Positions 644-8,096 of a stretch of 64,000 nucleotides of DNA are shown one piece after another. This stretch comes from Dehalococcoidia bacterium. Its GTDB lineage: Bacteria > Chloroflexota > Dehalococcoidia > Tepidiformales > Tepidiformaceae. The translations under genes were made by a program, and so were the position numbers. Position 1 is the first letter of the stretch. Each line of letters opens with the position of its first letter. The stretch spans positions 16,583-80,582 of the forward strand of contig JAJDUR010000078.1 in assembly GCA_022826585.1 (NCBI GenBank), written 5' to 3'. The notes below the pieces were generated by a model. That model was not told the DNA's origin, searched no databases, and saw only the letters and a program-made list of their open reading frames with translations.

Positions 644-1219
644 CTAGAGGTCGCAGGACATGATCACGAGGTCACGCTCGTTGCCCTCGCGGTCTATCAC
701 CCAGCCTTCGAGCGTCGCCTGGTAGCGGAAGCCGAGGCGCTCGAAGACAACGCGCGCACCTTCCTGGTCGACCGTCATCTGCGCGCTGAGCTTGGTCACG
801 CCGAGGGCGGGGGCGACCTGGCGAATCTCCGCGGCGAGCAGCCCCCCCATCCCGGTTCCGCGGAAGTCGGCGTGGACGTTGATGCGGATCTCGCCGATAT
901 GGCGGGTCCAGCGGGCAGGGCGGGTCCAGCGGGCGGGCTCGGTATGCAGGCTGCAATAGCCGACAATCTTGTCCTCGGCGCGGGCAATGATGGTGAACGT
1001 GTCCCCGGTGGTGATCTCGGCCAACCAGGCGTCGACCGTGGCCGGAGACGTGATGTCCTCCCTCAGGAAAAGCAGGACCTCTTCATCGAGGCTGCGCGTG
1101 AACTCGAGCATGTCTTCGCGGTCGTCGGCGGTGAATGCGACGAAGACCGCGGGCGTGCCGTCACGCAACTCGGCTTCCTTGGGGTACCGGCCGGACAGGT
1201 TGTGGAGTGAGGAAGTCAT
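644..1219 (-). CDS. GNAT-family N-acetyltransferase (paralog 1)
   Basis: 191 aa counted from ATG 1219 (MTSSLHNL...). Has an acetyl-CoA motif-A-like FRGTGMGGLL. About 60% identical to the neighbouring ORF 1291..1848. The 304-aa ORF-track extension is Arg/Pro-rich and overlaps the neighbour, so I reject it. Confidence 0.75.
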   Translation of the reverse strand: MTSSLHNLSGRYPKEAELRDGTPAVFVAFTADDREDMLEFTRSLDEEVLLFLREDITSPATVDAWLAEITTGDTFTIIARAEDKIVGYCSLHTEPARWTRPARWTRHIGEIRINVHADFRGTGMGGLLAAEIRQVAPALGVTKLSAQMTVDQEGARVVFERLGFRYQATLEGWVIDREGNERDLVIMSCDL

Positions 1220-1290
1220 GGCTGCACAAGTATAGATAGCGAGGACGGCAAGCGGAGCCGACTCCACCGCCGGGCGGACGAGACTTCCAT

Positions 1291-1848
1291 CTAGATTTCG
1301 CGGGCCATGATGAGCAGGTCGAGGTCGCGGCCCTCGCGATCCATGACCCATCCGGGGAGGATGGCCTGGTAGCGGAAGCCAAGCCGCTCGAACACGGTCC
1401 TGGCCGTGAGCTGGTCGACGGGCATCTGGGCGCTCAGGGTGCGGACGTTGAAGGCGGGGGCGACGGCGCGAATCTCGCCGGCCAGCAGGCCGCCGAGTCC
1501 CGTTCCCCGGTAGTCGGGATGCACGTTGAGGCGGATCTCGCCGACGTGACGGGTCCATCGGGCGGGTTCGGTGTGCAGGCTCCCGTAGCCGACGATGCGG
1601 TCGCCTACTTCGGCGATGACGGTGAACGTCTCGCCCTTCTCGACATCCGTCAGCCAGTCATCGACGACTTCGGGCGAGGTGATGTCTTCACGCAGGAAGA
1701 GGAGGTCTTCCTCCTCGAGCGCCCGGGCGAAACCGATGAGGTGGTCCCGGTCGGGGGAGAGGACAGGGCGGAAGACCACGGCGGTGCCATCGCGCAACAG
1801 GTCGTTGGTGGGATAGCGGAACGCGAGATCTTCACGTGTAAGCGTCAT
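1291..1848 (-). CDS. GNAT-family N-acetyltransferase (paralog 2)
   Basis: 185 aa with YRGTGLGGLL motif A. Tandem paralog of 644..1219. Confidence 0.8.
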   Translation of the reverse strand: MTLTREDLAFRYPTNDLLRDGTAVVFRPVLSPDRDHLIGFARALEEEDLLFLREDITSPEVVDDWLTDVEKGETFTVIAEVGDRIVGYGSLHTEPARWTRHVGEIRLNVHPDYRGTGLGGLLAGEIRAVAPAFNVRTLSAQMPVDQLTARTVFERLGFRYQAILPGWVMDREGRDLDLLIMAREI

Positions 1849-1860
1849 AGCGGGAGCATT

Positions 1861-2079
1861 CTAGCCAGTCCCCCCTCCTTCACAAGCAGGGTCGCTTACC
1901 CGTGGAGCAAAGGCGTGGCAGGAGGTGCGGGGCAGGGCAGGGTACTTGCGCAGGGACGGGTCTTCTGCGGCCCGTTCGCAGAGCCAGAAGCTGGAACCGC
2001 GGCCACTGTGGACGACGCGAGCATGCGCGCAGAGGCTGCAGAGGCCGACGGCGGGGTCGAGGGAGGGGGATTCGGTCAC
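1861..2079 (-). CDS. small Cys-rich protein (4 Cys, possible Zn-binding), function unknown
   Basis: 72 aa. The GTG start overlaps the pheT TGA (GTGA). Motif CSLCxHARVVHSGRGSSFWLC...YPxLPxxxC resembles a small conserved family I recall only from memory. Confidence 0.45.
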   Translation of the reverse strand: MTESPSLDPAVGLCSLCAHARVVHSGRGSSFWLCERAAEDPSLRKYPALPRTSCHAFAPRVSDPACEGGGTG

Positions 2080-4490
2080 GTGCGCAGGGTCGCGCCTAGA
2101 TCCTGCTCGAGCCGGCGGAGGAGCCCCTGCTCGATGCGAACTACGTCCTTCTCGCCGAGGGTGCGGTCGTCGGCGCGGAACCGGACGGCGACGGCGAGCG
2201 ACTTCTGGCCCGCGGGAACGCCCTCGCCCCGGTACTCGTCGAAGATATCGGCGCTGATGCGGACGCCACGGGCGCGATGGGTCCGCATCAGCTCGAGGAC
2301 GGCTGACGCGGGGGTGTCGGCCGGGACGAGCAGGGCGAGGTCGCGGCGCGCTTCGGGGTAGCGGCTGGGCGGCGCGTAGTCAGGCCGCTCGGGGAGGACG
2401 CGGGTCAGGGGCTCGAACCAGAGCTCGAAGAGGAATACCGGCTCCTCGATGTCGAAGGTGGCGGCCACGTCGGGGTGGACCTGGGCGACGACGCCAACGC
2501 TCTCGCCCGCGATGGAGACGGCGGCGGTGTGTCCGGAGAGCAACGCGTATTCCTCCACGGGGGTGAACGCCGCCGCCACGCCGAGGTCGCCGAGGAGGTC
2601 CTCCACCGCGCCCTTTGCATCAAAGAAGTCGAGGCGTTCGGGACCGGGGCGCTCCCAGCGCTCGAGGCGCTGGCCGCCGAGGACGGCGCAAAGGACGGGT
2701 CGCTCGTGGGGGAGGTCGGCCTCGGTGGGGAGGTACTCGACGCCGACCTCGAAGAAGCGCATGGCGGCGTCCTCGTGGTGGCGGTTGCCGGCGTAGGCCG
2801 CGAGCAGCGAGCCCCGCAGCGAGGTTCGCAGGTAGGTGTGCTGCGAGGCCACGGGGTTGGTGGCGGCGAGGGGACTGGCGCGATCCTCGTCGTCGGGGGA
2901 AACGACGCGGGCGAGCGTCTCGCCGGAGGTGAGGGTGTAGCTCACGACCTCCTGGAAGCCGAGCCCGGCGGCGAGCGCGCGGGATCGCTCGCGGACTCGC
3001 TCGAGGGGCCGGGGCTGGGCCTCGGGGAGAGCGCCGCGGAGGACGGTGGTCGGCAGCTTCTCGTAGCCGTACACGCGGATCAGCTCCTCAATGAGGTCGT
3101 CGGGAAGGGCGACATCGGGGCGCCAGAAGGGGGGCGTGACCTCGAAGGCGTCACCGCTCTCGGTGGCCTCGAAGCCGAGGGCCGCGAGGATGCGGCGCAC
3201 GTCGGCGGCCTCGATGGGGATGCCGAGTACCTGCTCGATGCGGGCCGCGGGGAGGGTGATGGTGGGGCTGGCGAGCGGGGTGGGATAGGCGTCGACGAGA
3301 CCGGCAGCGGGACGACCGTTCGCAACCCGCTCGAGCAGGTGGAGGGCGCGGGCCTGGGCGTAGGAGGCGAGGTCGGGGCCGATGCCCTTTTCGAACCGGA
3401 GTGAGGCCTCACTGCGCAGCCGAAGCCGGGTCGAGGTGCGGCGGATGGATCCGGGATGGAAGTTCGCGACCTCGAGGAGGACCGTCTTGGTCGACTCGGA
3501 GACCTCGCTGTTGCCGCCACCCATGATGCCCGCGACGGCCACCGGCCCCTCGCCGTCACAGATCATGAGCATGTCGGGGTCGAGGTCGCGCTCGATCTCG
3601 TCGAGCGTGGTGAGGGTCTCTCCGGCTCGGGCGCGACGGGGGCGGATCTCGGCGCCGCGGACGAGGTCGTAGTCGAAGGCGTGGAGGGGCTGGCCCGTCT
3701 CCAGCATCACGTAGTTGGTGACATCGACAACGTTGTTGATTGGACGCATGCCGGCGCGGATGAGCCGCTGCTGCATCCAGGGCGGAGAGGGCCCCAACTC
3801 GATACCCTCGATGATGCTGGCGGTGAAGCGCCGGCAGAGGTCCGGCGCCTCGATAGCGACGGAGACGAAGTCAGAAGCCTCCCGCTCCGACTGGGCGTAC
3901 GAGCGATCGGGTTCGCGCAGCGGCCGACCGGTGATGGCCGCCACCTCGCGGGCGAACCCAAGGATGCCAAGGAGGTCGGCGCGGTTGGCCCAGGTCGAGA
4001 CATCGAAGACCACGTCCCCGATGGCGTCCACGAGGGGAGAGCCGATAGCGGAGTCCTCCGGGAGCACGAGGATGCCCTCATGGTCGTCGCTGAGGCCGAG
4101 CTCCTTCTCGCTGAGGACCATGCCGGCGGAGTCCACGCCGCGGATGGCGCGCAGCTTCAGCTTCGAGAGCTTTCCGGAGTGGCCGTCGACGAGCATCGCG
4201 CCTTCCGTCGCGAAGGCGACTCTCTGGCCGGCAGCCACGTTCGGGGCTCCGCACACGACGGTCTTCGGCCCCTCGCCCACGTTGACCGTCGCGAGCACGA
4301 GCCTGTCGGCGTTGGGGTGGGGGTCGACGGCGAGCACTTCGGCGACGCGCACGAGCTCGGGATCCCACTGCTCGCCGATCACCTCCCAGCCCTCGACCTC
4401 GGCGATGGCATCCGTGACGCGCTTCGCGAACTCCTCAGGCGGGAGATCGATGTCGACGTAGTCGCGCAGCCAGGAAAGCGGGAGTTTCAT
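2076..4490 (-). CDS. pheT: phenylalanine--tRNA ligase beta subunit
   Basis: 804 aa. Has an N-terminal tRNA-binding domain, B3/4 and B5 regions, and a C-terminal FDX-ACB-like end (DIFDEYRGEGVPAGQKSLAVAVRFR). Lies downstream of pheS. Confidence 0.97.
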   Translation of the reverse strand: MKLPLSWLRDYVDIDLPPEEFAKRVTDAIAEVEGWEVIGEQWDPELVRVAEVLAVDPHPNADRLVLATVNVGEGPKTVVCGAPNVAAGQRVAFATEGAMLVDGHSGKLSKLKLRAIRGVDSAGMVLSEKELGLSDDHEGILVLPEDSAIGSPLVDAIGDVVFDVSTWANRADLLGILGFAREVAAITGRPLREPDRSYAQSEREASDFVSVAIEAPDLCRRFTASIIEGIELGPSPPWMQQRLIRAGMRPINNVVDVTNYVMLETGQPLHAFDYDLVRGAEIRPRRARAGETLTTLDEIERDLDPDMLMICDGEGPVAVAGIMGGGNSEVSESTKTVLLEVANFHPGSIRRTSTRLRLRSEASLRFEKGIGPDLASYAQARALHLLERVANGRPAAGLVDAYPTPLASPTITLPAARIEQVLGIPIEAADVRRILAALGFEATESGDAFEVTPPFWRPDVALPDDLIEELIRVYGYEKLPTTVLRGALPEAQPRPLERVRERSRALAAGLGFQEVVSYTLTSGETLARVVSPDDEDRASPLAATNPVASQHTYLRTSLRGSLLAAYAGNRHHEDAAMRFFEVGVEYLPTEADLPHERPVLCAVLGGQRLERWERPGPERLDFFDAKGAVEDLLGDLGVAAAFTPVEEYALLSGHTAAVSIAGESVGVVAQVHPDVAATFDIEEPVFLFELWFEPLTRVLPERPDYAPPSRYPEARRDLALLVPADTPASAVLELMRTHRARGVRISADIFDEYRGEGVPAGQKSLAVAVRFRADDRTLGEKDVVRIEQGLLRRLEQDLGATLRT

Positions 4491-4903
4491 GGTGTTGGGC
4501 TCTTGGCTGTTGGCTGTTGGCTGTTGGGGGTTCGCCTTCGAGCCGAGGGGGCAGGATTCGAGAAGTGTTGAATGAAACGTTGGAGCATGCGCTTGGTCGA
4601 GGCGACCCGGTCCGTTAGATCGGTTTGCGCCTCAGCACCGATGTAGCCGAGTTCTCGGGCGAGGATGAGGTGGTACTCCAGCTCAGTGGCGGAGCCCAGG
4701 GCAATGCGGAGGTGGTGCCGGAATTGTTCGTCGGTGAGAGCGGACCCTTCCGCGATATTGGCAGGCACCGAAGAGGCAGCTCTCCTCCCTTGCGACTGGA
4801 GTCCGAACCGCTCATCCGCGGGGAAGCCCTTGCTGGCTCGATACACGGCCAGCGTCAGCTGATGCGAGACTCGCCACACCTCCAGTTCCTGGAAGGGCCT
4901 CAT
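4487..4903 (-). CDS. four-helix-bundle protein (TIGR02436/PF05635 family: 23S rRNA IVS protein / Avd-like)
   Basis: 138 aa. Family hallmarks are FQELEVW, FPADERFGLQSQGRRAASSVPANIAEG and GSATELEYHLILARELGYI. AGGAG lies 8 nt upstream of the ATG. The stop overlaps the pheT start (ATGA). G+C is lower than in the flanks. Confidence 0.85.
   Translation of the reverse strand: MRPFQELEVWRVSHQLTLAVYRASKGFPADERFGLQSQGRRAASSVPANIAEGSALTDEQFRHHLRIALGSATELEYHLILARELGYIGAEAQTDLTDRVASTKRMLQRFIQHFSNPAPSARRRTPNSQQPTAKSPTP
4503..4527. repeat. left arm of an inverted repeat built from tandem heptamers (TTGGCTG x3 + TTGG)
   Basis: The reverse complement matches 4930..4954 at 24/25 positions. Lies inside the 3' tail of the four-helix-bundle ORF, 13 nt from the pheT ATG. 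Confidence 0.85.
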
Positions 4904-4929
4904 CGCAGCGCTCCTGCCGCGTCAACAAG

Positions 4930-4954
4930 CCAACAGCCAATAGCCAACAGCCAA
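4930..4954. repeat. right arm of the inverted repeat (CCAACAGCCAATAGCCAACAGCCAA)
   Basis: Pairs with 4503..4527. The similarity extends about 6 nt further with mismatches. Ends 8 nt before the pheS stop codon. Confidence 0.85.
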
Positions 4955-4962
4955 TAGCCTCT

Positions 4963-6024
4963 CTAGAACTGCCTCAGGAAGCGGAGGTCGTTCTGGTAGA
5001 AGTGGCGGATGTCCTCGATGCCCCAGCGGAGCATGGCCACGCGCTCGATGCCGACGCCGAAGGCGAAGCCCGTGTACTTCGAGGAGTCGTAGCCGGCGTT
5101 CTCGATGATCTCGGGGTGGACCATGCCGGCGCCGAGGATCTCGATCCAGCCGGTGTCGTGGCAGGTGCGGCAGTCGCTCCCGTCGGCGCGGCAGAGGAAG
5201 CAGTCGATGGCCATCTCGACGCCGGGCTCGACGAAGGGGAAGTAGCTGTGGTGGAAGATGATCTCGCGGTCCTCGCCGAAGAGGCGGCGGGCGAAGGCAT
5301 AGAGCGTGCCTTTCAGGTCGCTCATGCGGACGCCCTCGTCGACGGCGAGACCCTCAATCTGGGTCAGCATCCATTCGTGGGTGGCGTCGGTCGCCTCCTG
5401 CCGGTAGCACTTTCCGGGGACGATGACGCGCACGGGCGGTTCGGTGTGCTCCATCACGCGAATCTGGTTCGGGGACGTATGCGTGCGCAGCAGCATCTTG
5501 CGCTCGCCGTCGATGAGGGTATCGATCCAGATGGTGTCCCACATGTCGCGGGCGGGGTGGTCGTCGGGGATGCGGACGGCGTCGAAGTTGTAGCGCGACC
5601 ACTCGACCTCGGGCCCCTCGAAGACGCGGAATCCCATCTCCGCGAAGGCGTCGATGCAGTCGTTCATCGTCTGGGTGACGGGGTGGAGGCGGCCCAGGGA
5701 CTGGGGCCGTCCGGGGAGGGTGACGTCGAGGGCGGCGTCGGCGGAGAGGGTTGCGAGGGCGTCGGCGCGGGCGGCCTCGCGGCGCGCCTCGAGCTCCCCC
5801 TCGAGTGTCGACTTGAGCGCGTTCAGCGACTTCCCGAGGGAGGCGCGCTGGTCGGGTGGGGCGTCCTTCAGGGAGCGCAGGCGAAGGGTCAGGCGGCCGT
5901 CCTTGCGTCCCAGCCAGTCGGCGCGCCAGGCCTCACGCGCGGGCTCGTCGTCCGCCTGCGCGAGCGCTTCCAGCGCCTCCGCACGGAGCGCGTCAACCTC
6001 CGCTTCGATCGTGGACATGGGCAC
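4963..6024 (-). CDS. pheS: phenylalanine--tRNA ligase alpha subunit
   Basis: 353 aa with class-II aaRS motifs (FPFVEPGVEM, GFAFGVGIERVAMLRWGI). The start is GTG 6024 or ATG 6018. Confidence 0.97.
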   Translation of the reverse strand: MPMSTIEAEVDALRAEALEALAQADDEPAREAWRADWLGRKDGRLTLRLRSLKDAPPDQRASLGKSLNALKSTLEGELEARREAARADALATLSADAALDVTLPGRPQSLGRLHPVTQTMNDCIDAFAEMGFRVFEGPEVEWSRYNFDAVRIPDDHPARDMWDTIWIDTLIDGERKMLLRTHTSPNQIRVMEHTEPPVRVIVPGKCYRQEATDATHEWMLTQIEGLAVDEGVRMSDLKGTLYAFARRLFGEDREIIFHHSYFPFVEPGVEMAIDCFLCRADGSDCRTCHDTGWIEILGAGMVHPEIIENAGYDSSKYTGFAFGVGIERVAMLRWGIEDIRHFYQNDLRFLRQF

Positions 6025-6233: not shown

Positions 6234-8096
6234 ATGGGGCACCAACTGCTACAGCAACTTCGCGCGTCGTGGCCGGGCGCACTCGCCGGACTGGTGGCGA
6301 TCGCGCTGGGCCTGGCAGTCGCCGAACTCGCGGCCCGCCTGGTCGACGGCGCCTCGCTGATCGTCGCGATCGGCAACATCGTGATCGACAACTCGCCCGA
6401 GCAGGTGACCAAGTGGGCGATCGACACCTTCGGCTCGAATGACAAGCCATTGCTCATCGCCGGCGTGACCGTCGTCACGCTGCTCGTGGGCACGGGCGCG
6501 GGCGTGCTCTCGACGCGTATTCGCATAGCCGGGCCCGTCGTGTTCGCGATCCTCGCGGTCGTGGGCGGGCTGGCGGCGGCGGACGACCCCCTGACCTCGG
6601 CCGGGGATGCGGCGATCACGGCCGCTGCCGCGGGGATCGTCGCAATGGCCACGCTCCTCTGGCTGCTCCTGACGGCGCCCGGAGCCGGCGGGGCGGCAGA
6701 CGACTCGTCCGAGGACGTCGCGTCGCCCGAGCGAAGGCGGTTCCTCTACGTGACCGGGGGCGGGCTGCTGGCGGCGGCCGTGGCCGTTCCCCTGGTGCGG
6801 CGGTTCATCGACACGGGCGTGGACGTGGACGCACAGCGAGCCTCCATCGCCGACCGGCTGCGCAGCTCCTCGCAGGCACAGCGGGCCACGCCGGTCGCGA
6901 CCGCCACGGCAACGGCCACACCCGAAGCCGCATCGACTCCCACGCCGACGGCTGCGGCGACCGGCACGCCCGTGGCCGCGACGGAGGAAGCAACAGCGGC
7001 GGCAACCGGATCTCCGACGGCGACGGAGGCGCCAACCTCCGGTGAGACGCCGACGGAGGCCGCGGGCGAGGCCACTCCCGAACCGACCCCGGAGGCAACA
7101 CCGGAGCCGACGCCCGAGCCCACCCCCGAACCGACCCCGGAGCCAACACCGGAACCGCGGGCGGGGCCGGAGACGGTGCGCGGCATCTCGCCGCTGATCA
7201 CGCCAAACAACCGCTTCTACAAGATCGATACGGAACTGGCAGTGCCCCGCATCGACAGCTCCAGTTGGAGCCTGCGGATCAAGGGGATGGTGGACCGCGA
7301 GCTGGAGTTCACGTTCGACGACCTCCTCGACATGAGCCTCCAGGAGGAATCGGTGACGTTGGCGTGCGTCTCGAACCGGGTCGGCGGGAACCTCGTGGGA
7401 AACGCCTACTGGCTCGGCGTGCCGCTCCCCACGTTGCTGCGCGAAGCGGGGCTGCAGGCGAACGCCACGCAGGTCGTGGGCCGCGCGCTCGGTGGGTTCA
7501 CGACCGGGTTCCCGACCGACGTCGCGCTCGACGGGCGCAAGTCGATGGTGGTCCTCGGGATGAACGGTGAGGCTGTTCCCGCACGCCACGGGTTCCCGGC
7601 GCGCCTGATCATCCCGGGACTGTACGGCTACGTTTCGGCGACGAAGTGGCTGGAGGAGATCGAGCTGGCGGAGTGGGACAGCTACGACGCCTACTGGGTA
7701 GGATCGCGAGGGTGGTCGAAGCAGGGGCCGATCAAGCTGCAGTCCCGCATCGACGTGCCCGACAATGACGACACGCTGCGGGCCGGGAACGTGCGCGTCG
7801 CGGGCGTCGCCTGGGGCGGCCTGCGGGGCGTGAGCGGCGTGCAGGTCCGGCCGAGGAGGCGCTCGGGCCAGGAACAGGCCGGAGACGGCGAGTGGCTGGA
7901 CGGCCTCCTCAGCGAGGAGCTTTCGGACAGCAGCTGGCGGCAGTGGGTGGTCGACTGGCCCGCCACCGAGGGCAGCTTCGACCTTGAAGTGCGCGCCATC
8001 GACCGGAGCGGCATGGTGCAAACGGACGAGGAGCGGCCGCCGAAGCCGGACGGGGCCACCGGCCACCACATCATCCGCGTGAACGTCAGGGCGTAG
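6234..8096 (+). CDS. membrane-anchored molybdopterin-dependent oxidoreductase (sulfite oxidase / MsrP-like family)
   Basis: 620 aa. The N-terminal ~170 aa are multi-TM, followed by a ~100-aa Thr/Pro/Ala/Glu linker. The Mo domain carries CVSNRVGG, ARHGFPARLIIPGLYGYVSATKWL and a C-terminal Ig-like dimerisation domain. Confidence 0.85.
   Translation: MGHQLLQQLRASWPGALAGLVAIALGLAVAELAARLVDGASLIVAIGNIVIDNSPEQVTKWAIDTFGSNDKPLLIAGVTVVTLLVGTGAGVLSTRIRIAGPVVFAILAVVGGLAAADDPLTSAGDAAITAAAAGIVAMATLLWLLLTAPGAGGAADDSSEDVASPERRRFLYVTGGGLLAAAVAVPLVRRFIDTGVDVDAQRASIADRLRSSSQAQRATPVATATATATPEAASTPTPTAAATGTPVAATEEATAAATGSPTATEAPTSGETPTEAAGEATPEPTPEATPEPTPEPTPEPTPEPTPEPRAGPETVRGISPLITPNNRFYKIDTELAVPRIDSSSWSLRIKGMVDRELEFTFDDLLDMSLQEESVTLACVSNRVGGNLVGNAYWLGVPLPTLLREAGLQANATQVVGRALGGFTTGFPTDVALDGRKSMVVLGMNGEAVPARHGFPARLIIPGLYGYVSATKWLEEIELAEWDSYDAYWVGSRGWSKQGPIKLQSRIDVPDNDDTLRAGNVRVAGVAWGGLRGVSGVQVRPRRRSGQEQAGDGEWLDGLLSEELSDSSWRQWVVDWPATEGSFDLEVRAIDRSGMVQTDEERPPKPDGATGHHIIRVNVRA
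7074..7157 (+). repeat. in-frame 12-nt tandem repeat x7 encoding (TPEP/TPEA)n
   Basis: Encodes ATPEPTPEATPEPTPEPTPEPTPEPTPEP within the linker of the Mo enzyme. Confidence 0.9.

Follow-up and report, generated by a model that had tools for sequence, protein, structure and literature searches.

A four-helix-bundle gene between inverted heptamer arrays in the pheS-pheT junction of Tepidiformaceae: a candidate intervening-sequence-type cassette outside rRNA

Results

Structure of the pheS-pheT junction

We analysed the junction of the phenylalanine-tRNA ligase genes pheS and pheT in a stretch of 64,000 nucleotides of contig JAJDUR010000078.1 (Dehalococcoidia bacterium, assembly GCA_022826585.1; below, the window). 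The host is a Tepidiformaceae-like member of Chloroflexota: its PheS is 94-96% identical to the proteins from Tepidiformaceae and Dehalococcoidia metagenome-assembled genomes (MAGs). The pheS-pheT spacer of 472 nt contains a single open reading frame (ORF) of 138 aa. The ORF belongs to the four-helix-bundle family, known from the ORFs of 23S rRNA intervening sequences (IVSs), and is flanked by two arrays of tandem heptamers in inverted orientation. Below, the ORF together with its two arms is called the cassette. The intergenic spacings around it are 3 nt between the pheS stop codon and the 5' arm, and -4 nt between the ORF and pheT. The features are listed in Table 1.

Table 1. Features of the pheS-pheT junction in the window (arms are named in the mRNA sense)
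Feature	Position	Strand	Evidence or remark
pheS, phenylalanine-tRNA ligase alpha subunit	4963..6024	-	TIGR00468, E 8.5e-90
pheS stop codon TAG	4963-4965	-	3 nt upstream of the 5' arm
5' arm, ~4.3 heptamers GGCTRTT / TTGGCTN	4930..4959	-	inverted repeat I1
AGGAG, Shine-Dalgarno box of the four-helix-bundle ORF	4911..4915	-	precedes the ATG by 7 nt; loop position next to the inner end of the 5' arm
Four-helix-bundle ORF, 138 aa (23S rRNA IVS protein / S23p / Avd-like)	4487..4903	-	PF05635, TIGR02436
Conserved domain core, ORF residues 5-108	4580..4891	-	PF05635 match
3' arm, CAACAGC / CCAAGAG heptamer array	4498..4527	-	inverted repeat, period 7
AAGAG, weak Shine-Dalgarno-like motif for pheT	4500-4504	-	inside the 3' arm
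ATGA, ORF stop overlapping the pheT start	4487..4490	-	sequence
TGA stop codon of the four-helix-bundle ORF	4487-4489	-	sequence
pheT start codon ATG	4488-4490	-	sequence
pheT, phenylalanine-tRNA ligase beta subunit	2076..4490	-	TIGR00472, E 2.5e-211, model 1-798 from residue 1

The positions of the pheS stop, the pheT start and the only ORF of the spacer agree with the initial annotation of this DNA, which was made from the letters alone; the same is true of the AGGAG box of the ORF and its ATGA overlap with pheT. The foreign-looking composition of the cassette noted there is also supported. The hand count of about 53% G+C for the segment 4561-4620 is exact (53.3%), and the cassette element as a whole has 62% G+C against 70% in the window. 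At third codon positions the G+C content (GC3) is 0.70 in the ORF, compared to 0.94 in pheS and 0.90 in pheT. Among 39 distinct orthologous cassettes, GC3 of the ORF is lower than that of both flanking genes in 38 (means 0.73 versus 0.89 and 0.87).

No promoter-like or terminator-like sites were observed between the pheS start and the pheT end, and thus the cassette is probably transcribed as a part of the pheST mRNA. A search of the whole 64-kb window against Rfam at gathering thresholds produced no families: no tRNA, rRNA, riboswitch or T-box was found, including the region upstream of pheS, and pheST showed no match to a known leader RNA.

The encoded protein

The assignment to the four-helix-bundle family, suggested initially from the look of the translated sequence, was borne out by profile searches. 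The 138-aa ORF matches PF05635 (E 6.6e-32, 110.3 bits with the cut-off of 33.8, profile positions 1-105 of 106) and TIGR02436 (E 3.4e-30, 104.4 bits with the cut-off of 24), and is a member of this family. About 112 of its residues appear to form the core. The nearest solved structure by sequence (E 2.5e-17, residues 2-95) is Xcc0516 of Xanthomonas campestris (PDB 2GSC), described as a homopentameric ring of four-helix bundles (PMC4990558).

PF05635 has been recognised as Avd-like (PMC10053308). The ORF matches the PHROG family 'Avd protein of DGR' (diversity-generating retroelement) with E 1.2e-7. As regards the Pfam families PF05635 and PF22296 (bAvd), the window's ORF is above the cut-off for PF05635 only, and some of its pheST relatives also match PF22296. 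Avd functions together with a reverse transcriptase and nucleic acid. The Avd proteins of DGRs, homologous four-helix-bundle proteins, are adjoined by a reverse transcriptase gene, whereas no reverse transcriptase and no template or variable repeat was found within about 2-4 kb on either side of the orthologous pheST loci (the search did not extend to the remainder of the 64-kb window). The Pfam neighbours in the same range, taken from precomputed lists, are thioredoxin/NHL, PheS, PheT, GNAT and HAD. To our knowledge, flanking inverted heptamer arrays are not a feature of DGRs.

The protein core is under purifying selection: in the window's clade dN/dS at residues 2-112 is 0.07-0.18. The tail, for which the spacer and the 3' arm code, has dN/dS of 0.3-2.5. 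Its low-complexity segment NSQQPTAKSP is the translated 3' arm. In most of 12 compared pairs dS of the tail is lower than that of the core, which points to a constraint on nucleotides rather than on the peptide.

Heptamer arms and the predicted stem

The arms form an inverted repeat of 30 nt with 93% complementarity (4498-4527 versus 4930-4959). It is slightly longer than the repeat of 25 nt described initially, the heptamer build of which is confirmed. With Tandem Repeats Finder the two arms come out as arrays of period 7, at 4.9 and 5.1 copies, the 5' array spanning 4923-4959. The double heptamer has seven matches in the window, all of them within the two arms, with 0.23 expected; none of 100 shuffles reached seven. 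When the minus-strand RNA 4980..4470 was folded, the arms were paired both in the minimum free energy structure and in the centroid structure (z = -2.35). Of the proposal that a stem loops out the complete ORF, the predicted stem is retained, and the looping out would be partial: the last ~13 codons of the ORF are the 3' arm itself.

Inverted arrays of about four heptamers are present at every occupied pheS-pheT junction, directly downstream of the pheS stop and shortly upstream of the pheT start. The arms are conserved and covarying in the 39 orthologous cassettes. The heptamer differs by lineage, and both arms change together, the 5' and 3' variants being TTGGCTG and CAGCCAA, TTGGCCG and CGGCCAA, TTAGCTG and CAGCTAA, TCGGCTG and CAGCCGA, TTAGTCG and CGACTAA, CCAGCTN and NAGCTGG. 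Arms of the same locus pair better with each other than with arms of other loci (mean score 36.9 versus 25.2; none of 5000 permutations as high).

The RNAalifold consensus of 16 diverse cassettes contains a long-range helix of 25 pairs and just two small helices of 2-3 pairs, with compensated changes in 12 of 30 predicted pairs. In the long-range helix 95.8% of cells are paired and 11 pairs have changed on both sides (none of 500 shuffles as high), whereas at most 54% are paired in the sliding-partner control. Hence arm complementarity is maintained by compensatory change. Position 7 of the heptamer is often unpaired, so the helix is made of repeats of six base pairs and one variable position.

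Presence and loss at the pheS-pheT junction

The protein search with the ORF produced 775 homologues. The closest ones that were looked up (66-81% identity) all lie between pheS and pheT with a 4-nt overlap into pheT, and a relative with 57% identity also lies between these two genes. A PheS scan with one genome per species yielded 80 loci, mostly labelled Tepidiformaceae or Dehalococcoidia, with PheS 65-96% identical. The junction could be scored in 69 of these species genomes. It contains the four-helix-bundle cassette in 36 of them (spacer about 450-530 nt), is empty in 25 (spacer from -1 to 30 nt), and carries a deletion remnant in eight (spacer 56-88 nt).

The three states are interleaved on the PheS+PheT host tree. 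The nearest relative of the window (L075) has an empty junction, TAAcgccATG, and the occupied L001 and the empty L083 come from near-identical hosts. The junction of the cultured Tepidiforma flava is also empty. The window's own clade contains at least three different empty forms. A third kind was observed in the Tepidiformaceae chromosome OZ220489.1 (L087), where pheS has one extra codon and runs into pheT (TCAATGA).

In most remnants (L077/79, L084, L086, L090/94) the 5' arm and the ribosome-binding region of the ORF are joined to pheT exactly at the start codon. Each remnant that retains the 5' part resembles the 5' region of a cassette-bearing relative. In L092, on the other hand, only the 3' arm is left, together with the ORF's 3' end. 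Other loss alleles are clean excisions, with the pheS stop again next to the pheT start.

As a separate observation, L077, L079, L084, L086, L090 and L094 represent at least four apparently independent deletions from the start of the ORF to the start of pheT. These deletions leave a solitary near-perfect 5' heptamer array, with the Shine-Dalgarno (SD) box of the ORF apparently driving pheT. The only microhomology common to them is (A/G)TGA.

Repeated losses among relatives show that the cassette is dispensable, and the losses that survive appear to be the ones in which ribosomes can still reach pheT. At this exact junction in Tepidiformaceae the cassette is a long-standing resident, polymorphic but unstable, rather than a recent arrival.

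Exchange of whole cassettes

ORF distances correlate with host distances (Mantel r = 0.59; none of 2000 permutations as high) and, judged by eye, the trees of ORF and host largely agree in the window's clade. Elsewhere, three pairs of hosts (L111/L131, L135/L140, L117/L122) differ at 4-5% of residues in PheS and PheT and at 46-53% in the ORF. The ORF dN in such pairs is 0.46-0.55, compared to 0.01-0.04 in the flanks. Identity in the alignments is about 93% as far as the pheS stop and returns to this level about 10 nt ahead of the pheT ATG; between these points the cassettes, arms included, cannot be aligned at the nucleotide level. The converse is seen in L085/L089, where the proportion of synonymous differences (pS) is 0.02 in the cassette versus 0.24 in the flanks, the tract of low divergence beginning near the pheS stop and ending roughly 50 nt inside pheT. 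Thus one cassette has been exchanged for another, along with its arms, at this site. Taken with the low GC3, this replacement suggests an exchangeable unit whose source pool has not acquired the codon usage of the host.

No target-site duplication was visible when occupied and empty junctions were compared by eye, and no transposase, integrase or nuclease gene was found in or adjoining the cassettes examined. Neighbour-joining trees disagree on whether the pheST cassettes are monophyletic: one groups them together, and another nests cassettes from other operons among them.

Link to pheT translation

The four-nucleotide overlap (A/G)TGA between the ORF and pheT is present in 29 of the 39 cassettes. 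In 34 of the 39, the reading frame of the ORF is the one that includes the TGA of this motif at the pheT start (binomial p = 5e-12 against one third). The length of the ORF varies from 127 to 148 aa while the frame is constant, and hence the frame has been kept through insertions and deletions.

The initial annotation had stated that pheT has no recognisable SD box of its own. This is nearly so in the window, where only the weak AAGAG is seen, and does not extend to the family: in many relatives an AGGAG box of pheT is located inside the last heptamer of the 3' arm. The pheT SD motif is absent in 12 of the 29 overlapping cassettes, including the window's one, versus two of the ten non-overlapping ones, the other eight of which have a strong box.

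Cassettes of the same build at other loci

A flanking inverted repeat was also observed at 38 of 56 distinct loci with four-helix-bundle genes from unrelated metagenomes, none of them beside pheS or pheT, and at 15 of 21 such loci from IMG/VR; a repeat was counted if it beat at least 99 of 100 shuffles. The arm self-identity at the metagenome inverted-repeat loci has peaks at lags 7 (0.53) and 14 (0.48), compared to 0.2-0.3 at the remaining lags. The heptamers themselves are very diverse (TTAGCTA, CAGGTAN, GGTCAGC, AGGGAGT, CTGCGGA, GTAGGCT), while the period stays 7. The polarity of the arms relative to the ORF is variable: it is reversed in L027 and L033, and in the cyanobacterial L191 the arrays are direct.

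Where genes have been called, such cassettes lie between co-directional genes of operons, namely iolB(KduI)-iolD, adh_short-MR_MLE, hipA_2-DUF3037 and the RND adaptor-pump pair (L161, L192, L193, L194). Among the metagenome loci with an inverted repeat, 31 could be scored for neighbour orientation, and in ~23 of them the upstream gene points the same way, a count made by a longest-ORF heuristic that is too crude to carry weight. Two of the four operon loci show particular 5' borders: in L193 the upstream stop codon belongs to the first heptamer, and in L194 the upstream gene call extends through the 5' arm.

Plasmid matches to four-helix-bundle genes are mostly from Nostoc and Calothrix, and such genes carry heptamer arrays. 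In L191, on the Pseudanabaena galeata plasmid NZ_CP112875.1 (46268-46627), the four-helix-bundle gene is situated between cas6 and cas4, with (AAAAGCT)x15 upstream and (AAAAGCC)x10 downstream. This setting might be the reason why '23S rRNA IVP' counts among CRISPR-linked domains in PMC10910872.

A further group of soil metagenome loci (L056, L057, L058, L061) contains four-helix-bundle genes with arms of 24-65 nt that have no obvious heptamers and do not lie in rRNA. Three or four of them have a common outer sequence (GAACGGGCGGGAGGCGTC...). They may represent a separate cassette sub-type or a shared insertion target.

Discussion

Relation to known systems

The IVS-like topology proposed in the initial annotation agrees with the 23S rRNA IVS of Coxiella burnetii, an element whose 428 nt comprise a terminal stem of 28 bp, heptamers in tandem and an ORF for S23p (PMC4990558). 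The two are similar in size (428 and ~462 nt), in the terminal inverted repeats that form, or are predicted to form, a stem of 28-30 bp, in the heptamers of the 5' strand of the stem, and in the PF05635 ORF with its own SD box in the loop. The Coxiella IVS is regarded as a selfish or once-mobile element, and we regard the pheST cassette likewise. ORF-bearing IVSs have also been reported in Leptospira and Brucella, and the origin and function of IVSs have been called unclear, with an old suggestion that they are mobile elements whose ORF serves mobility (PMC4990558).

The differences are equally clear. The Coxiella IVS sits in helix 45 of 23S rRNA, whereas the pheST cassette occupies a spacer of a protein-coding operon and lies outside the rRNA IVS class, whose members are inserted in helix 25 or 45 of the 23S rRNA gene. 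In Coxiella the ORF is in decay and its protein apparently not produced, whereas the pheST ORF is under purifying selection and joined to the pheT start codon. Excision by RNase III has been shown for the Coxiella IVS; for the pheST cassette it is a hypothesis. Twenty of the other inverted-repeat-flanked loci were also screened with Rfam; no rRNA was found, the sole match being one tRNA. Thus neither the pheST cassette nor these loci are rRNA IVSs.

The arms are also reminiscent of the STRR (short tandemly repeated repetitive) sequences of cyanobacteria, 7-bp tandem repeats capable of forming hairpins in intercistronic spacers. Between hupS and hupL such hairpins may be involved in transcript stability or translational coupling (PMC2670836), and STRR repeats inside the RNase P RNA gene appear in the reference list of PMC7593598. 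In the published descriptions the loop of STRR hairpins contains no ORF, whereas that of the pheST cassette does, and a link to four-helix-bundle genes is not stated in the STRR papers examined. The taxonomic range is also different: STRR repeats occur in filamentous or heterocyst-forming cyanobacteria and have their own consensus heptamers, and the pheST cassette, with TTGGCTN, is from Chloroflexota. On the other hand, STRR heptamers were first described in Nostoc and Calothrix, the very taxa that dominate our plasmid matches.

Similarly to miniature inverted-repeat transposable elements (MITEs) and integron gene cassettes, the pheST cassette is small, has no mobility gene of its own, is polymorphic for presence and absence, and is exchanged as a whole unit at a fixed site. 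Unlike them, it shows no visible target-site duplication, no attC-like site and no integrase or transposase in its vicinity, it carries a protein gene under selection, and its ends are periodic arrays rather than a unique terminal sequence.

We found no paper describing heptamer-flanked four-helix-bundle cassettes outside rRNA; our coverage of the literature is incomplete, and an earlier description may exist. What seems to be new here is that the IVS architecture is found in the operon of an essential aminoacyl-tRNA synthetase and not in rRNA.

Proposed account

The account that we favour, with a probability of roughly 0.6, is that of an IVS-type cassette which is co-transcribed with pheST, folds into the stem in vivo, and is coupled to pheT by termination and reinitiation. 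The cassette would ride the pheST mRNA as a passenger. Its stem would bring the pheS stop and the pheT start together again, at 3 nt and 7 nt from the base of the helix. Ribosomes would start at the ORF's own SD box in the loop, and their passage through the 3' arm would unzip the stem covering the weak SD motif of pheT. Termination on the UGA within AUGA would be followed by reinitiation on pheT. Such coupling would weld a passenger gene to the essential pheT, and only those deletions would survive that give pheT new ribosome access, which would account for the loss alleles observed.

Of the interpretations made in the initial annotation, coupling to pheT gains support from the frame, kept in 34 of the 39 cassettes despite ORF lengths of 127-148 aa, and the mobile or exchangeable nature of the element from its presence-absence pattern, its remnants and the replacement of whole cassettes at the same site. 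The suggestion that the element has landed in the operon has to be modified, as the insertion is not a fresh one: 36 of the 69 related species genomes carry a cassette here, and the trees, judged by eye, are largely congruent in the window's clade.

Several observations weigh against this account. Co-transcription, the stem in vivo and coupling are all things that we infer from nucleotide sequences, nearly all of them from MAGs. The trees are neighbour-joining trees without support values, and both the pairing statistics and the frame statistic ignore the relatedness of the cassettes. Ten of the 39 cassettes terminate the ORF before pheT, mostly with a strong pheT SD box, and so coupling is not obligatory; the association between the absence of this box and the overlap is only a weak trend. 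In many pairs dS is saturated or confounded by the GC3 difference and codon bias, and only extreme cases were used. The purifying selection on the protein implies a function, which the account leaves unexplained.

A further objection comes from the mismatches in the arms. A transition in a G-C or A-U pair is as likely, by mutation, to produce G·U as A·C, and selection for an RNA helix normally retains the former and purges the latter. No excess of G·U over A·C was observed on the coding strand (42:39 in the pheST stems, 26:44 at other loci, 68:83 overall). Thus there is no sign that pairing has been selected specifically in the sense transcript, and this fact, together with the variable polarity of the arms, leaves room for a role of the arms at the level of DNA. 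The mismatches are still compatible with an RNA stem, as single ones in a helix of 30 bp may be nearly neutral.

Alternative explanations

One alternative is that the arrays are ends of a DNA element, that is, terminal repeats or iterons bound by a protein, either the encoded pentameric one or a factor acting in trans, which mobilises or exchanges the cassette. Both ends would have to match one binder, hence the arm complementarity. This would agree with the mismatch spectra, equal on both strands (68 G·U and 83 A·C), and with heptamers that differ widely at a constant period of 7, from TTGGCTN in the window to the motifs listed above for other loci. The unfixed polarity of the arms, the sharp boundaries of replaced cassettes with their arms, and the occurrence of cassettes in many unrelated operon junctions and phyla point in the same direction. 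However, the cassettes examined have no adjacent transposase, integrase or nuclease and no visible target-site duplication, non-DGR members of the family are not known to bind nucleic acids, and homologous recombination via the conserved pheS and pheT flanks could explain the replacement. We consider this explanation somewhat unlikely; it is compatible with the coupling account. A cassette acting as an IVS at the level of RNA, as the initial annotation proposed, seems unlikely. In that case RNase III would cut the 30-bp stem, excise the cassette RNA and split the operon mRNA, and pheT expression would be set by this processing instead of by coupling. The stem is long enough, predicted to be stable and conserved through covariation, and a cut in the 3' arm would release the pheT SD box from the helix. 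But in 29 of the 39 cassettes the ORF includes the 3' arm, so that the cut would take away the stop codon and make the message non-stop, although the protein is subject to purifying selection. The lack of a G·U excess also speaks against this possibility, and the conserved coupling frame has no role in it.

It is even harder to see the cassette as a domesticated host gene, an ordinary vertically inherited regulatory module of pheST that is neither mobile nor selfish, and we find this improbable. Strong purifying selection, the presence of the cassette in about half of the related species, and the congruence of the ORF and host trees in the window's clade (with Mantel r = 0.59) would be expected of such a module. 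Not expected would be the repeated and differing losses, with no cassette in the closest relative or in cultured Tepidiforma, the swaps of divergent cassettes in near-identical hosts, the persistently non-host codon usage, and the same build between unrelated gene pairs and in other phyla. Finally, heptameric simple repeats are reported to be over-represented in bacterial genomes and have been attributed to polymerase slippage (PMC4692102), and such repeats might flank an unrelated small gene by accident. The chances of this are negligible. The double heptamer has seven matches against 0.23 expected, all at the two arms; the inverted arrangement is seen, with covariation, in 39 of 39 pheST cassettes; and it is found again at independent loci, 38 of 56 and 15 of 21, at each of which the repeat outscored 99 or more of 100 shuffles. 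These counts refute accidental slippage.

Other features of the window

A PADLOC search for defence systems gave no matches. Two further repeats were noted, both within coding regions. The ORF 644-1558 (minus strand), similar to GNAT acetyltransferases, contains at 901-938 an 18-nt tandem repeat that duplicates a peptide (ARWTRP/ARWTRH). A paralogous GNAT ORF lies at 1291-1848 on the same strand, and thus the acetyltransferase genes are in tandem, as in relatives. The ORF 6234-8096 (plus strand), encoding a protein of 620 aa, has at 7077-7157 a 24-nt repeat that encodes a (TPEP)n linker; no Pfam match is recorded for the orthologues of this protein.

Implications

This locus and its relatives tie together three puzzles: the 23S rRNA IVSs with their S23p ORFs, the non-DGR part of the four-helix-bundle family, and the excess of heptameric repeats, reported for bacteria with no explanation offered (PMC4692102), together with their hairpins. 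The pheS-pheT junction of Tepidiformaceae provides natural alleles within one family, empty, occupied, decayed and swapped. The prediction from them is that translation of an essential gene would be coupled to a passenger gene via a stem built of repeats. If this coupling is real, a dispensable element would have become entrenched in an essential operon without a toxin.

A broader generalisation can be offered only tentatively, and we find it more doubtful than the coupling account. Four-helix-bundle genes with inverted 7-nt arrays might constitute a distinct and widespread class of mobile cassettes residing in operon spacers (pheS-pheT, iolB-iolD, RND adaptor-pump, hipA-DUF3037, cas6-cas4) and in rRNA helices. 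The 23S rRNA IVSs and the STRR hairpins lacking an ORF would then be special or degenerate cases, and the pentameric Avd-like protein would bind its own co-evolving arms, perhaps for mobility or exchange. If so, this would provide a function for a very large orphan protein family, and would help to account for the long-noted excess of heptameric repeats in bacterial genomes.

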